Sequence record: MF158041
Length of the DNA stretch: 64,000 nt
Reading direction: 5' to 3' (one strand)
Source of the DNA: Shigella phage Sf15
The position numbers and the translations under genes were made by a program. Below the pieces are notes generated by a model. That model saw only the letters and a program-made list of their open reading frames with translations, was not told where the DNA came from and made no database searches. Position 1 is the first letter of the stretch; each line of letters starts with the position of its first letter. Below are positions 42,945 through 47,611 of this stretch, piece after piece.

Positions 42945-43020
42945 TGGAGTATCGGAAGGGACTCGAACCCTCATAAACCTGTTTTGCAGACAGGCACATA
43001 ACCATTTCTGACACCGACAC
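42945..43020 (-). tRNA. tRNA-Cys (GCA)
   Basis: manual fold: 7-bp acceptor, T-arm, anticodon loop shows codon TGC on plus strand; CCA encoded. Confidence 0.7.
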
Positions 43021-43026
43021 ATAATT

Positions 43027-43119
43027 TGGAGGAAGATACCAGACTTGAACTGGTACGCCGATTTCTCGGTTACTGGCAGTTTAGCAAACTGCTCCCTTAC
43101 CTTTTAGGGTTAATCTTCC
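43027..43119 (-). tRNA. tRNA-Ser (GCU)
   Basis: 93 nt with long variable arm; anticodon loop codon AGC; perfect acceptor stem. Confidence 0.7.
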
Positions 43120-43120
43120 A

Positions 43121-43855
43121 TTATTTGTTCAGAGCTTCTTTCATCTCTGGAGTTGCGATAGTATCAATCACACCAGTTTTACATGAATCATCAAACCAGC
43201 TTGGTAGAACATTCGCAAGGAAACCATTAATATTTGTTTTCAGGTATTCTGCAATCAGTGCTGCTTCATCTGCAATCATCTGAGTTACTTCATTAGCATA
43301 TGCAGTAATCTTTGCAATACCCTCATTAATCGCTGTAACGGCCTGTGTAGCGAGTTCAGAGATTGTATCTAGTCCTTGGTCGATTGCATCTTGCAAATCG
43401 CTCAGAACGCTATTTACAGCGTCTATGGAGGTATTAATCAAATCCATCGCTTTATTACCGTACTCGGTAGCTACGCCCATGATACCGCTAAACGGTGTAC
43501 ATCCAACCTGTTCACCTGCTGCTCCCATAACGTTAGAGTAACCTTTAGCTACTTGCATACGTTGTGAAAACTCATCTACAGACTTTTGTCCATACTCAGT
43601 AAGTGTACTTGTCGTTGAAGTTGTACTTCCAAGGCTTGTTGTGAAGCTTCCTAATAAGGCTGTTGTCAGTCCAGCAGCAACTAAAATCTGTTGTGTAGCT
43701 GGGTCTGTTACAGAACTAATTGAGTTAACTAATGATTGAGAGGCAGCTACAGTACCACCAAGAACTGCTGCACCAGTAATAAGAGGGTTTGAGAAACCAT
43801 TACCAGCTTTAAGGAGATTAAAAATCTCTTTACTTTGTTCTGTCATCTCTTTCAT
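43121..43855 (-). CDS. hypothetical Ala/Thr/Ser-rich protein
   Basis: ORF 43121-43918 trimmed to Met at 43855 (AGGTG RBS) so it no longer overlaps the adjacent tRNA. Confidence 0.45.
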   Translation of the reverse strand: MKEMTEQSKEIFNLLKAGNGFSNPLITGAAVLGGTVAASQSLVNSISSVTDPATQQILVAAGLTTALLGSFTTSLGSTTSTTSTLTEYGQKSVDEFSQRMQVAKGYSNVMGAAGEQVGCTPFSGIMGVATEYGNKAMDLINTSIDAVNSVLSDLQDAIDQGLDTISELATQAVTAINEGIAKITAYANEVTQMIADEAALIAEYLKTNINGFLANVLPSWFDDSCKTGVIDTIATPEMKEALNK

Positions 43856-43871
43856 TATGCACCTATAAAGT

Positions 43872-43946
43872 TGGTAGCCCATCGGGATTTGAACCCTGTT
43901 CTCATGTTTTTCAGACACGCGCTTTAACCATATAAGCTAATTGAGC
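43872..43946 (-). tRNA. tRNA-like, probable Phe (GAA), atypical stems
   Basis: T-loop and anticodon arm (codon TTC) fold, but T stem and acceptor pairing imperfect. Confidence 0.4.
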
Positions 43947-43954
43947 TATTAAAT

Positions 43955-44031
43955 TGGGGTGACCTACGGGAATCGAACCCGTATAGACCATGTTCACAGC
44001 ATGGGTCATTATCCATTTATGATAAGGCCAC
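43955..44031 (-). tRNA. tRNA-His (GUG)
   Basis: clean cloverleaf, anticodon loop codon CAC. Confidence 0.7.
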
Positions 44032-44062
44032 ATTTAAGGACTCTCGTAAGAACCCTTAGAAG

Positions 44063-44138
44063 TGGCAGCAGTATAAGGATTTGAACCTTAATCTTTCAGC
44101 TTCAGAGGCTGGAGCATTGCCAGTTATGCTATACTGCT
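44063..44138 (-). tRNA. tRNA-Gln (CUG)
   Basis: perfect acceptor AGCAGTA/TACTGCT, anticodon loop codon CAG. Confidence 0.65.
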
Positions 44139-44144
44139 AATATT

Positions 44145-44215
44145 TGGTACTCCATATCGGATTCGAACCGATACATAACACAGATTTTAAATCTGGCCTC
44201 TCTGCCAATTGGAGT
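44145..44215 (-). tRNA. tRNA-like, atypical (possible anticodon UAA)
   Basis: good T-arm and acceptor but only 71 nt, tiny D arm, anticodon arm is a perfect palindrome CAGATTT-T-AAATCTG. Confidence 0.35.
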
Positions 44216-44225
44216 AATGGAGCGT

Positions 44226-44301
44226 TGGCGGGGGATGATGGAATTGAACCATCTTCTTCGATTTCAAAGACCGAGGTTTTAACCTTGTAAACTAATCCCC
44301 T
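44226..44301 (-). tRNA. tRNA-Gln (UUG)
   Basis: cloverleaf, anticodon loop codon CAA. Confidence 0.65.
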
Positions 44302-44309
44302 ATTAAATT

Positions 44310-44386
44310 TGGTGCAGAATAGAGGATTCGAACCCCTAACTAACAACTTCGTAGGTTGCTGCTCTGTCCATTTGAACTAATTCTGC
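44310..44386 (-). tRNA. tRNA-Arg (ACG)
   Basis: full manual fold; sense anticodon loop CTACGAA; CCA encoded. Confidence 0.75.
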
Positions 44387-44548
44387 AATATCCTTTTGAG
44401 ATTCCTGTCTAGCTCTCTTCTTATCTCTTCTGAGAAAGCGTTTACGATGGTCTGTACGCCATTTGTAATAATCTTCTTCACCATCATGTGCTGCACAGCA
44501 GCCACAACTTGCAATTTCAACTTTACCATGTCTACCATAAGGCTTCAT
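44336..44548 (-). CDS. small basic Cys-containing protein inside tRNA cluster
   Basis: 70 aa ORF with AGGAG RBS 7 nt upstream of ATG; 3' 50 nt overlap tRNA-Arg. Confidence 0.35.
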   Translation of the reverse strand: MKPYGRHGKVEIASCGCCAAHDGEEDYYKWRTDHRKRFLRRDKKRARQESQKDIAELVQMDRAATYEVVS

Positions 44549-44564
44549 AGGAATCTCCTAAAAT

Positions 44565-44642
44565 TGGTGTTCCAAGACGGATTCGAACCGTCACTAATAC
44601 AAGGTTTGAGCTTGCATCCTCTGCCAATTGGGATACTGGAAC
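44565..44642 (-). tRNA. tRNA with anticodon CAA (Leu-type) but short variable arm
   Basis: 78 nt cloverleaf; anticodon loop codon TTG; no long extra arm. Confidence 0.5.
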
Positions 44643-44643
44643 T

Positions 44644-45821: not shown

Positions 45822-45898
45822 TGGCACACCCTACAGGATTCGAACCTGTAACTGACGGTTTAGAAGACCGTTGCTCTATCCGTTTGAACTAAGGGTGC
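45822..45898 (-). tRNA. tRNA-Arg (UCU)
   Basis: anticodon stem ACGGT/ACCGT, loop codon AGA. Confidence 0.7.
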
Positions 45899-46146
45899 AT
45901 TATCTTTAAAGGCTCTCTTAGAAAACCCTTAAAGATGCCCACTTTATTAATCATACCGTGGGCTAGTACGCCAAATTCTTTAACAGGGAGTTGGAATACC
46001 CTGCTGGTGTTTAGCCTATTAAGCTACTGCCAGAAAAACATTATCGTTTGCATTTATTTTTAAGTTTTTAAAATAGACGCTACGCTAACGAAAACTAAGG
46101 TTATCTTAAAGTGGTCACATCTGAATGTCAACAACTTTATGAAATT

Positions 46147-46222
46147 TGGTACTGGTAGGTGGAATCGAACCACCGATATTCCCTTATCAGGGGAGTGTTA
46201 TAACCTTCTTAACTATACCAGC
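46147..46222 (-). tRNA. tRNA-Ile (GAU)
   Basis: T-arm GGTGG/CCACC, loop codon ATC. Confidence 0.7.
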
Positions 46223-46224
46223 AT

Positions 46225-46301
46225 TGGAGGTTCAGGTGGGAATCGAACCCACATTCATAGGGCTTATGAAACCCTTGCATTACCTTATCTGCGACTGAAC
46301 C
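46225..46301 (-). tRNA. tRNA-Met (CAU), elongator-type
   Basis: loop codon ATG, acceptor GGTTCAG/CTGAACC. Confidence 0.65.
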
Positions 46302-46382
46302 ATTATAAGTTGCCCCTTTGTAGAGAACTGATTGAGTGGGTGTTTCCAGCCGCGCATGTGTTCTTCAGTTAAGGGGCGAATT

Positions 46383-46458
46383 TGGTAGAAGTGGAGGGAT
46401 TCGAACCCGTCGCCTGTCAGATTAAAAGTCTGCCGCATCACCATTCTGCTACACTTCC
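46383..46458 (-). tRNA. tRNA-Lys (UUU)
   Basis: loop codon AAA; T-arm nearly identical to Lys(CUU) gene. Confidence 0.6.
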
Positions 46459-46652
46459 ATTAAATCATCTTTGCAGTAACCTACGCAAACCTTGCTAAAG
46501 GGTTTGTAGAGTCATCTCTTATAAGCTAATCTAGAATCATGCTCAAGAGACTCTTCGGCACTCATGGGACGACTGGTTAGCTCCATAAGTCACTGCAAAG
46601 AGGATTACCAGACCGTATTTATCTTAAGTGCTTCCATTACACCAACACGCCG

Positions 46653-46725
46653 TAACGTGTGAAGGAATCGAACCTTCGCCTTTTCTTTACCAGAGAAATA
46701 GATTGTTTATTGTTTGCTGTAAACG
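46653..46725 (-). tRNA. tRNA-like fragment (T-arm and anticodon arm, possible Thr GGU); likely degenerate
   Basis: T-arm GAAGG-AATCGAA-CCTTC and anticodon hairpin present but no matching 5' acceptor strand. Confidence 0.25.
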
Positions 46726-46882
46726 GTCTTCTGTAAAATTGTTGGAACCAGACCAAGTTTTAAATTTTTCAAATTAAATTGGCTTGAAATATTAAAATTG
46801 CTTGCTGTATTTGGTCTTCTGCTCCTTTAAAGAATACTCGTAAGAACTCTTTAAGGGAGGGGCTAAAAAGCCCTCTCAAATT

Positions 46883-46960
46883 TGGCGGTTACGAAGGGAT
46901 TCGAACCCTCATCATCCTCCGTGACAGGGAGGTATTTTGACCAGTTAAACTACATAACCT
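46883..46960 (-). tRNA. tRNA-Asp (GUC)
   Basis: anticodon stem CCTCC/GGAGG, loop codon GAC. Confidence 0.7.
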
Positions 46961-46965
46961 TTATT

Positions 46966-47053
46966 TGGTGCGCCGTGAAGGAGTCGAACCTCCCGAGTCA
47001 TAATGACAAGTGATTTACAGTCACCACCGCTTCCATCTACGGGATAACGACGC
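46966..47053 (-). tRNA. tRNA-Tyr (GUA)
   Basis: 88 nt with long variable arm, loop codon TAC. Confidence 0.7.
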
Positions 47054-47122
47054 ATTTTATTCTATTCAGGCTAAGGACTTGCACCTTACAAATCGGTGAG
47101 CAATCGCTTCTCTCCCAAATCT

Positions 47123-47199
47123 TGGCGGTTAGTCAGGGATTCGAACCCTGTACCATTCGGTTAACAGCCGACCGCACATGCCTTATGTGCTTCCTAACC
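47123..47199 (-). tRNA. tRNA-Asn (GUU)
   Basis: D stem GCAC/GTGC, loop codon AAC. Confidence 0.7.
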
Positions 47200-47283
47200 A
47201 TGTTAGTATTACCAGACCGTATCTTTTCATTTTTTGCCTATAAAAAATTTTAAGTGTTTGCTGTAAACGGCCTTCTGTAAATT

Positions 47284-47360
47284 TGGAGGCGGGTGTAGGA
47301 GTCGAACCTACCGATAACATGCTAATGAGACATGTGAGACACCCTTTCTCTATACCCGCA
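47284..47360 (-). tRNA. tRNA-Met (CAU), possible initiator-like (1:72 mismatch)
   Basis: loop codon ATG; first acceptor pair unpaired. Confidence 0.55.
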
Positions 47361-47447
47361 ATTCTTAATGACCAGACCAAATCTTTTTTGGATTTCTATG
47401 CGCGAAATTGAAAAGTTTGTTTGCTGTAATTGGTCTTCTGTCAAAAC

Positions 47448-47525
47448 TGGCATTCCCGAAGGGACTTGAACCCTCAAACCACACCTTGAAAGGGTGTTGA
47501 CTTTACCTAATTTGTCTACGGGAAT
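47448..47525 (-). tRNA. tRNA-Glu (UUC)
   Basis: perfect acceptor ATTCCCG/CGGGAAT, anticodon stem ACACC/GGTGT, loop codon GAA. Confidence 0.75.
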
Positions 47526-47531
47526 ATAATT

Positions 47532-47611
47532 TGGTCTCCGTTGAAGGATTTGAACCTTCGACCCCTTGCTCCCAAAGCAAGTGCTGCTAAACCAAACTGA
47601 GCTAAACGGAG
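47532..47611 (-). tRNA. tRNA-Pro (UGG)
   Basis: perfect acceptor CTCCGTT/AACGGAG, anticodon stem CTTGC/GCAAG, loop codon CCA. Confidence 0.7.

Follow-up and report, generated by a model that had tools for sequence, protein, structure and literature searches.

A conserved tRNA array in Shigella phage Sf15 with a probable non-canonical tRNA-Trp gene and candidate Y RNAs beside a Ro60-like gene

Closely spaced tRNA genes gathered in clusters are known from T4, T5, the KVP40-type vibriophages and the cluster C mycobacteriophages. We have analysed such a cluster in a 64,000-nucleotide stretch of Shigella phage Sf15 (sequence record MF158041, the whole stretch being called the window hereafter), where it occupies positions 42945 to 47611 on the minus strand. 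The closest described systems are those of two relatives. Shigella phage Sf13 (Mooglevirus, Ounavirinae) is 99.3% identical over 5501 nt around the cluster, and its RefSeq record carries the same 26 tRNA genes, found with tRNAscan-SE, in the same order and with the same anticodons, as well as both embedded open reading frames (ORFs) and the same flanks, an 'RNA-binding protein' gene upstream of the cluster and the terminase downstream. The sister phage Sf14, 97.8% identical over the region, is the subject of a dedicated paper that reports "26 tRNAs recognizing 19 amino acids" (PMC12482277). With these 26 genes annotated in Sf13 and a study devoted to Sf14, the cluster itself is already known, and its description for near-identical phages leaves nothing new to add on that score. 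Neither the Sf13 and Sf14 records nor that paper annotates or mentions a Trp-like gene and four repeats that lie within the array. This unannotated Trp-like tRNA, together with candidate Y RNAs beside a Ro60-like anti-defence protein, makes up the modest additions described here.

The 5.5-kb cluster region matches 301 phage records, mostly from the Felix O1 group and mainly from phages of Escherichia, Salmonella, Shigella, Citrobacter and Erwinia. These matches to Mooglevirus and Felixounavirus phages bear out the phage origin assumed in a first-pass annotation, which a model had made from the sequence alone. Felix O1 and other Felixounavirus arrays are syntenic with that of Sf15: they share the Pro-Glu-Met-Asn-Tyr-Asp start, the same Ro60-like gene, the Trp-like element and the repeats. 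They differ from it in sequence (about 80-90% identity) and, in some cases, by inserted HNH endonuclease genes, and ARAGORN found no tRNA-Arg(TCT) in the stretches of Felix O1, wV8 and AYO145A. Reported tRNA gene counts in Felixounavirus range from 17 to 23 (PMC8300805). When the array is compared with those of T4, T5, the KVP40-type phages and the cluster C phages, the gene sets are unrelated; the present one comes unusually near to one tRNA per codon box and, unlike the T4/T5-type arrays, is linked to a Ro60-like gene. Judging from these sequence comparisons, it is very probable that the region is the conserved tRNA array of a Mooglevirus (Felix O1-like) phage, supplying a near-minimal decoding set. 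It holds 26 canonical tRNA genes and one non-canonical Trp(CCA)-like gene, with two ORFs and four Y-RNA-like elements interspersed.

Over the whole window, ARAGORN called 26 tRNA genes, and every one of them lies on the minus strand within 42945-47611. The span given in the first pass was therefore exact and its predicted genes were largely confirmed, the same 26 being returned by tRNAscan-SE in Sf13, whereas its count of about 28 came down to 26 canonical genes and a non-canonical one. Twenty-three of the 26 stand at or above the gathering score of the Rfam tRNA model RF00005 (29 bits), with scores ranging from 33 to 67 bits. Their anticodons, together with those of the other three, are GCA, GCT, GAA, GTG, CTG, TAA, TTG, ACG, CAA, TAC, TGT, TCC, TGC, CTT, TAG, TGA, TCT, GAT, CAT (twice), TTT, GTC, GTA, GTT, TTC and TGG. 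An encoded 3' CCA is present in 25 of the 26 genes (the exception being Ser(TGA)), and neighbouring genes are often spaced by only 1-8 nt. By the standard tools (default ARAGORN, Rfam at the gathering score, tRNAscan-SE annotation), the set covers 19 amino acids and lacks Trp. Every item of the anticodon list drawn up in the first pass was recovered by ARAGORN except Trp, and that item matches the non-canonical element at 45574-45656.

Running ARAGORN with -ps90 added no calls to the default 26. With -ps80 eight extra calls appeared, seven of which, on the plus strand antisense to tRNAs or within ORFs, were judged spurious; the eighth was the Trp-like region itself (45574-45661), typed as tRNA-???. 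Weak Rfam matches (E up to 5), far below the gathering scores, were treated as chance: Plastid-ycf2 antisense to tRNAs, tmRNA_permuted and alpha_tmRNA driven by tRNA-Ile, Dicty Class I RNA on two of the repeats described below (R1 and R2), and S774, mir-9229 and ceN106.

The non-canonical gene was delimited from its sequence, from covariation and by comparison with E. coli trpT:

45574 to 45656, minus strand: tRNA-Trp(CCA)-like gene, 83 nt

Its 5' part reads AUGGGAC GAUGUUAAG ACAC UAAGGCAU GUGC G ACGGC CUCCAAA ACCGU, and its 3' part continues with UUCAA AUGGG UUCGAAU CCUAC GUCCCAU G CCA. In common with trpT of E. coli K-12 it has the A1-U72 pair, G73, the CCA end, the anticodon loop CUCCAAA and a standard T loop; its length is 83 nt as against 76 nt for trpT. 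The anticodon, G73 and A1-U72 are identity elements for the E. coli tryptophanyl-tRNA synthetase (TrpRS). The acceptor and D stems are separated by 9 nt instead of 2 (about 7 extra), the D stem has 3 base pairs (bp), and two positions, C31.A39 and A49.C65, are mismatched. It is this departure in length and spacing, added to the two mismatches, that makes tRNA finders skip the gene: no Trp tRNA was called by ARAGORN by default or with -ps90, by Rfam at the gathering score or in the tRNAscan-SE annotation of Sf13. The best Rfam score of the element was 21.5 bits (E = 1.1), obtained with the tRNA-Sec model.

At least 234-258 phage records contain the Trp-like element, its carriers being phages of Escherichia, Salmonella, Shigella, Citrobacter, Pectobacterium and Yersinia (including Yersinia phage P778). 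In every row inspected, the annotation beneath it was "none", "hypothetical protein" or "promoter". We aligned ten distinct variants taken from GenBank phages, among them Pectobacterium phage Arno162, and from IMG/VR contigs; a 15-mer scan of IMG/VR gave 85 loci, mostly unrelated chance matches, of which we retained only the ones showing both a TCCAA loop and a T arm. Over the ten variants, 99.5% of the cells of the cloverleaf are paired. Changes on both sides were seen in 8 of the 19 pairs, in all four stems, and none of 500 shuffles reached the observed covariation. Control structures, in which the 3' partner was slid by 1-3 columns, were 31-51% paired, a comparison that favours the proposed structure because it was derived from these same aligned sequences.

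The compensatory changes are found throughout the molecule. In the acceptor stem, pairs 1-72 and 2-71 change from A-U and U-A to G-C and C-G, position 1-72 being A-U in six variants, G.U in three and G-C in one. The D stem shows a change from A-U to U-A, the anticodon stem ACGG/CCGU becomes UAAG/CUUA or UAGG/CCUA, and pair 50-64 of the T stem goes from U-A to G-C. For the D arm, the model CAC/GUG has one both-sided change, and the alternative AUGUU/GGCAU is kept in Arno162 only via wobble. The anticodon CCA, the D-loop GG, the UUC that starts the T loop, G73 and the CCA end are invariant; the anticodon loop is CUCCAAA here and UUCCAAC or UUCCAAA in relatives.

Two phages without the 83-nt element, wV8 and Sf19, have at the same position a different Trp(CCA) gene of 71 nt with a shortened D arm (3606-3676 of the wV8 stretch, 1008-1078 of the Sf19 stretch). 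An HNH endonuclease gene comes right after it, a sign that the two alleles may be exchanged in connection with a homing endonuclease. ARAGORN calls the 71-nt gene of wV8, which RefSeq labels "tRNA-OTHER, pseudo". A Trp(CCA) gene of one of the two kinds was found at this position in every relative examined. That some CCA-anticodon tRNA is always there, combined with the compensatory evolution of the stems, argues strongly against a pseudogene, and the element at 45574-45656 is probably a functional non-canonical tRNA-Trp. With it, the set would probably cover all 20 amino acids. The first-pass annotation had made that claim for the whole array; it fails by the standard tools, which give 19, and becomes plausible if the covarying Trp-like element is counted.

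The other unannotated component consists of four repeats among the first tRNA genes of the cluster, downstream of a gene for a Ro60-like protein:

47777 to 49192, minus strand: gene for a Ro60-like protein with DUF2828 and DUF7788 (Pfam; 'RNA-binding protein' in PHROG; AlphaFold2 model; Foldseek)
47366 to 47445, minus strand: Y-RNA-like repeat R1, closing helix module only (repeat search, fold, alignment)
47206 to 47282, minus strand: Y-RNA-like repeat R2 (repeat search, fold, alignment)
46742 to 46826, minus strand: Y-RNA-like repeat R3 (repeat search, alignment)
46602 to 46738, minus strand: Y-RNA-like repeat R4, the longest, with V, T, acceptor-like and D stem-loops in the closing helix (RNAalifold)

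The Ro60-like gene lies immediately upstream of the cluster and is an 'RNA-binding protein' in RefSeq. The AlphaFold2 (AF2) model of its product (pLDDT 88, pTM 0.88) predicts the Ro60 fold, in which helical repeats form a TROVE-like ring accompanied by a vWA domain. The 11 top-ranking PDB matches given by Foldseek are all Ro60/TROVE structures, including the Ro60 of a Thermus phage (E 7e-8 to 2e-5), and the model superimposes on Ro60 over its full length with a TM-score of up to 0.64. It differs from bacterial Ro60 (Rsr) and other TROVE proteins in belonging to DUF2828 and not to Pfam TROVE: Pfam returned DUF2828 and DUF7788 only, with no match to TROVE. A sequence search of the PDB gave no match for the protein, NCBIfam gave none for it or for the embedded ORFs, and a search of the literature on DUF2828 found nothing relevant. 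Its Bas63 homologue, gp130, has already been noted as Ro60-like and is reported to counter the Ppl defence system (PMC11482910).

R1 to R4 are direct repeats and are without annotation anywhere. Their common module is made of a 4-bp outer helix, an internal loop with AGA on the 5' side opposite G on the 3' side, and an inner helix AGRCCNN/NNGGUCU, with a single-stranded UACAGCAA directly after the 5' strand. In 26 distinct copies from many phages, 99.7% of the cells of this module are paired. The invariance of the core motifs is not evidence here, since these motifs were part of the search pattern; covariation was observed at positions outside that pattern (UUAC/GUAA, UGAC/GUCA, GAGC/GCUC, UUGC/GCAA), with a score reached in none of 500 shuffles. 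For R4, RNAalifold gives V, T (GGUUCGAUUCC), acceptor-like and D-like hairpins enclosed by the closing helix, and three pairs of the 7-bp acceptor-like stem have changes on both sides. A near-threshold tRNA match (46653-46727, 28.8 bits with RF00005 against the 29 required) is located in R4; it was rejected as a 28th tRNA and taken as the tRNA-like domain of this Y-RNA-like repeat.

Bacterial Y RNAs of the YrlA type have T, acceptor-like and D stem-loops in that order, and one criterion for them is that a Ro60 orthologue be encoded in the same orientation no more than 4 kb away (PMC4201824). R4 resembles them in the order of its stem-loops and in its position, about 1 kb downstream of the Ro60-fold gene and on the same strand. 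It is in other respects that the phage repeats depart from YrlA. Three of the four are without a tRNA-like domain, and their 5' strand (A/G)CAGAAG matches the YrlA motif GNCGAAN0-1G at no more than five of the six specified positions. The Rfam YrlA model (RF02553) had no match on 46602-46738 at E up to 5, and its sole match in the region, at 21.6 bits, falls on two normal tRNA genes.

Distant DUF2828 homologues, 45-52% identical, adjoin tRNA clusters in three phages: a 143-kb metagenomic phage, Yersinia phage P778 (6001-13369) and Vibrio phage phi-pp2 (72-7437), coordinates being those of the respective stretches. In the metagenomic phage, whose protein is 49% identical, five tandem elements (7521-8128) are found in the 690 nt that separate the gene from the first tRNA. 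Each is closed by an AGAAG.../...CUUCUG helix, which starts with AGA/UCU, and bears a UACAGCAA-type motif (for the fifth, UUCCGCAA); no fewer than two of the five contain T, acceptor-like and D hairpins. An array with the same core behind a Ro60-like gene only 49% identical would point to a widespread phage Ro60-Y RNA family linked to tRNA clusters. R1 to R4 may be Y RNAs for the Ro60-like protein of Sf15. For Bas63, a preprint had ventured that "some tRNA genes ... are possibly Y RNAs" (PMC11482910). This guess can now give way to four specific candidates that share a defined and covarying helix resembling a binding module, and the idea becomes directly testable. As for the joint proposal, that the aberrant tRNA-Trp completes a near-minimal set for 20 amino acids and that the four Y-RNA-like RNAs, one of which has a permuted tRNA-like domain, partner the Ro60-like protein, we hold it tentatively and put it somewhat below an even chance.

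The anticodon set is of a near-minimal design. A single U34 tRNA serves each of the four-codon boxes of Ala, Gly, Pro, Thr, Val, Ser and Leu, and ACG serves the CGN box of Arg; pyrimidine-ending boxes have G34, and purine-ending ones U34, with an additional C34 for Lys, Gln and Leu. By classical wobble these tRNAs read 45 of the 61 sense codons, which account for 76% of the codons in the ORFs of the window (about 39% G+C). If U34 also reads U, the figures become 52 of 61 and 96.5%; if it reads whole four-codon boxes, they become 59 of 61 and, as derived from the codon table, about 99.7%. Two codons stay unread even then, ATA (2.9 per 1000) and CGG (0.3 per 1000, the rarest codon). The full decoding set announced in the first pass is thus reduced to 45 codons under classical rules and is approached only with four-way U34 decoding.

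The first-pass annotation had also suggested comparing the anticodon set with the codon usage of phage and likely host. For codons that pair by Watson-Crick rules with a phage tRNA, the ratio of phage to host relative synonymous codon usage averages +0.35 in log2, compared with -0.54 for the others (Mann-Whitney p = 0.006); codons enriched in the phage include AGA, ACA, CUA, UUA, UCA, CCA, GCA, GGA and GUA. The Sf14 study agrees on this enrichment (PMC12482277), and a bias of phage tRNAs towards codons used more by the phage than by its host is a general result attributed to Bailly-Bechet 2007 and Yang 2021 in two papers that cite them (PMC12482277, PMC11482910).

The 26 canonical genes, from the first of the cluster to the last, are given below; all were called by ARAGORN and, unless a line states otherwise, by Rfam.

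47532 to 47611, minus strand: tRNA-Pro(TGG), first of the cluster, Rfam 57.2 bits, encoded CCA
47448 to 47525, minus strand: tRNA-Glu(TTC)
47284 to 47360, minus strand: tRNA-Met(CAT) with a U1.C72 mismatch, U73 and U37, also called by tRNAscan-SE in Sf13, below the Rfam gathering score
47123 to 47199, minus strand: tRNA-Asn(GTT)
46966 to 47053, minus strand: tRNA-Tyr(GTA) with a long variable arm, below the Rfam gathering score
46883 to 46959, minus strand: tRNA-Asp(GTC), Rfam 67 bits
46383 to 46458, minus strand: tRNA-Lys(TTT)
46225 to 46301, minus strand: tRNA-Met(CAT) with G1-C72, U73 and three G-C pairs in the anticodon stem
46147 to 46222, minus strand: tRNA-Ile(GAT)
45822 to 45898, minus strand: tRNA-Arg(TCT)
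45471 to 45560, minus strand: tRNA-Ser(TGA), Rfam 33.4 bits
45143 to 45220, minus strand: tRNA-Leu(TAG)
45060 to 45135, minus strand: tRNA-Lys(CTT)
44978 to 45053, minus strand: tRNA-Ala(TGC)
44897 to 44971, minus strand: tRNA-Gly(TCC)
44814 to 44890, minus strand: tRNA-Thr(TGT)
44644 to 44718, minus strand: tRNA-Val(TAC)
44565 to 44642, minus strand: tRNA-Leu(CAA)
44310 to 44386, minus strand: tRNA-Arg(ACG)
44226 to 44301, minus strand: tRNA-Gln(TTG)
44145 to 44223, minus strand: tRNA-Leu(TAA)
44063 to 44138, minus strand: tRNA-Gln(CTG)
43955 to 44031, minus strand: tRNA-His(GTG) with G1-C72 and C73, below the Rfam gathering score
43872 to 43947, minus strand: tRNA-Phe(GAA)
43027 to 43119, minus strand: tRNA-Ser(GCT)
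42945 to 43020, minus strand: tRNA-Cys(GCA), last of the cluster

The 3' end of tRNA-Ser(TGA) is CC followed by U, which makes it the sole gene of the set without a full CCA; in the absence of the final A, it would need the CCA-adding enzyme of the host. An identical 15-mer, CAGTTCTCTACAAAG (minus strand), occurs at 45228-45242 and 46316-46330, shortly upstream of tRNA-Leu(TAG) and of the tRNA-Met at 46225-46301, and a related copy is found at 44718-44732. The spacer between tRNA-Ile and tRNA-Arg(TCT) contains, at 45941-46031 on the minus strand, a tRNA-like 5' part and a hairpin CAGGG-UAUUCCAACU-CCCUG, with no T arm. The loop of this hairpin resembles the Trp anticodon loop, and the element has weak matches to tmRNA models only; it may be a remnant of another tRNA.

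Two protein-coding genes are embedded in the array:

43121 to 43855, minus strand: ORF of 244 aa, DUF7217 / phrog_2114, gp17 in Sf13
44336 to 44548, minus strand: conserved ORF of 70 aa, phrog_10765, gp18 in Sf13

A DUF7217 ORF directly upstream of tRNA-Ser(GCT) is also present in Yersinia phage P778 (12526-13269 of its stretch), meaning that its placement within the tRNA array is conserved. At its 3' end the 70-aa ORF shares 51 nt with the 5' part of tRNA-Arg(ACG), which is encoded in the same orientation.

We then come to several features that weigh against the array being a fully working decoding set. Three of the tRNA genes, His (43955-44031), Tyr (46966-47053) and Met (47284-47360), are below the RF00005 gathering score, and homologues of these sub-threshold genes are flagged as pseudogenes in several Felixounavirus records, the counterpart of tRNA-Tyr being marked pseudo in those of Felix O1, wV8 and AYO145A. 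The tRNA-His gene has no encoded G-1 (a U precedes G1) and its discriminator is C73. Both CAU tRNAs carry U73, and when their structures were compared with the initiator, elongator and lysidine-Ile classes, neither was a clean fit to any; the published tRNAscan-SE 2 scores likewise do not sort them into classes, and 14 of the 26 Sf14 tRNAs score best under the model of another isotype (PMC12482277). For the host, codon usage was taken from one 49-kb stretch of E. coli K-12 in which ribosomal protein genes abound. Lastly, the commonest phage codons of the four-codon boxes end in U (GGT, GCT, ACT, GTT, TCT, CTT, CCT) and are without a reader by classical wobble, so that independence from host tRNAs needs a hypothetical decoding of the four-way U34 type.

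Aminoacyl-tRNA synthetases and the enzymes for tRNA processing and modification would come from the host. On four laboratory strains of E. coli, the tRNA genes of the Felix O1-like phage Bas63 proved mostly dispensable (PMC11482910), a result that also weighs against the set being needed. The need for host synthetases, the atypical identity features of several tRNAs and this dispensability weaken the case for strong autonomy. The "strong translational autonomy" of the first-pass annotation is overstated, all the more so given its dependence on U34.

The search for transcription signals gave the following promoter-like sites, of the sigma70 type, and terminator-like sites:

47730 to 47758, minus strand: promoter-like site P1, TTGACA-17-TAATAT, 10/12 (consensus scan)
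47639 to 47668, minus strand: promoter-like site P2, TTGACA-18-TATAGT with TG, 11/12 (consensus scan)
46103 to 46131, minus strand: promoter-like site P3, TTGACA-17-TAAGAT, between tRNA-Ile and tRNA-Arg(TCT) (consensus scan)
45669 to 45697, minus strand: weaker promoter-like site P4, TTGACA-17-TAAGCT, just upstream of the Trp-like gene (custom pattern search)
42853 to 42912, minus strand: strong hairpin then U6, directly after tRNA-Cys (fold)
42762 to 42787, minus strand: second terminator-like hairpin (42787-42770) and T run (consensus scan)

P1 overlaps the hairpin that follows the Ro60-like gene, and P2 ends 28 nt before tRNA-Pro. The positions of P1, P2 and P3 are kept in Felix O1, PHB11, wV8 and AYO145A, with varying spacers; P4 is absent from the consensus-scan list and its Felix O1 counterpart has TTTACA. 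Promoter-like matches are not enriched in the region (9 compared with 11.1 +/- 3.4 in shuffles), and position is therefore the sole argument for these sites. The 95-nt stretch 42850-42944 folds at -28.5 kcal/mol (z = -5.49), and none of 200 shuffles was as stable; from this predicted structure, the hairpin at 42853-42912 is likely to be the terminator of the cluster. That the genes stand so close together suggests polycistronic precursors.

The first-pass annotation saw in the whole cluster a single operon, running from a promoter at 47730-47758 to a terminator at 42762-42788. Both signals were indeed found by the scan, all the genes of the cluster are on one strand, and no terminator-like site was predicted on the minus strand within it. 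We nevertheless consider a single operon very doubtful: a better promoter match (47668-47639) lies 90 nt further downstream and nearer to the first tRNA, a conserved site (46131-46103) and a weaker one (45697-45669) are internal, which makes three position-conserved promoter-like sites and a fourth in an array that also embeds two conserved ORFs, and a much stronger terminator hairpin precedes the proposed one by 70 nt. Promoter-like matches occur at shuffle frequency, so none of them is proven, that of the single operon included. From the arrangement of these sites, several transcription units are probable rather than one. A second alternative bears on the size of the set, which would be limited to 19 amino acids if the Trp-like element were a decayed pseudogene or a non-decoding tRNA-like RNA. 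This is unlikely, yet it deserves to be taken seriously, as the element is missed by default ARAGORN, by the Rfam gathering score and by tRNAscan-SE annotations, some 7 extra nucleotides disrupt its acceptor-D junction, two stem-closing positions are mismatched, its fold energy is unexceptional (z = -1.49) and the D stem could pair in the alternative way AUGUU/GGCAU. Conservation in at least 234 phage records and across six phage host genera, compensation in all four stems with a fixed anticodon loop, T loop, D-loop GG, G73 and CCA, and the presence of another Trp(CCA) gene at the same spot in phages without it (wV8, Sf19) are not expected to persist in a pseudogene, and we retain a functional tRNA-Trp as the better reading.

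A third alternative concerns the role of the array, which could mainly be counter-defence, the phage genes making good the loss of host tRNAs, by cleavage or depletion, to immune systems that target tRNAs (anticodon nucleases, for example) rather than tuning codon use. Such a role is established in other phages, according to two papers that cite van den Berg et al. 2023 for it (PMC12482277, PMC11482910). In Sf14, about one tRNA in two has an anticodon loop different from that of host tRNAs and tRNA-Lys(CTT) has no host counterpart (PMC12482277), the neighbouring Ro60-like gene is itself reported to counter Ppl in Bas63, and dispensability of the tRNAs on laboratory strains is what one expects of conditionally useful genes (PMC11482910). 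Ross and Doore, however, tested counter-defence for Sf14 and rejected it: the only known anticodon nuclease of the host, VapC, targets tRNA-fMet, which is not phage-encoded (PMC12482277). The near-complete design with one tRNA per box and the match to phage codons also fit a general supply better than evasion of a few nucleases. Counter-defence as the main role seems to us improbable, though not negligible, and a supply of tRNAs for phage translation is the preferred explanation.

Gene content, conservation and codon statistics, which were observed directly, suggest how such a supply would operate, from transcription, processing and charging to the range of U34 and late use. Host RNA polymerase would transcribe the tRNA genes as a few polycistronic precursors, from which host RNase P and 3'-end enzymes would excise the tRNAs, and host synthetases would charge them. 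The phage tRNAs would supplement the host pool for an AT-rich genome, and late in infection they may largely replace it. For the late genes of Sf14, the tRNA adaptation index reaches its maximum when the phage tRNAs are taken as the only pool, and the authors of that study favour a late-infection dependence on phage tRNAs (PMC12482277). This published argument, in which late translation relies on the phage's own tRNAs, has a gap for Trp that the Trp-like gene would close if it is functional. The same gene indicates that standard tRNA finders undercount phage tRNAs. If this reading is true, the set for 20 amino acids would permit late translation with little help from host tRNAs.

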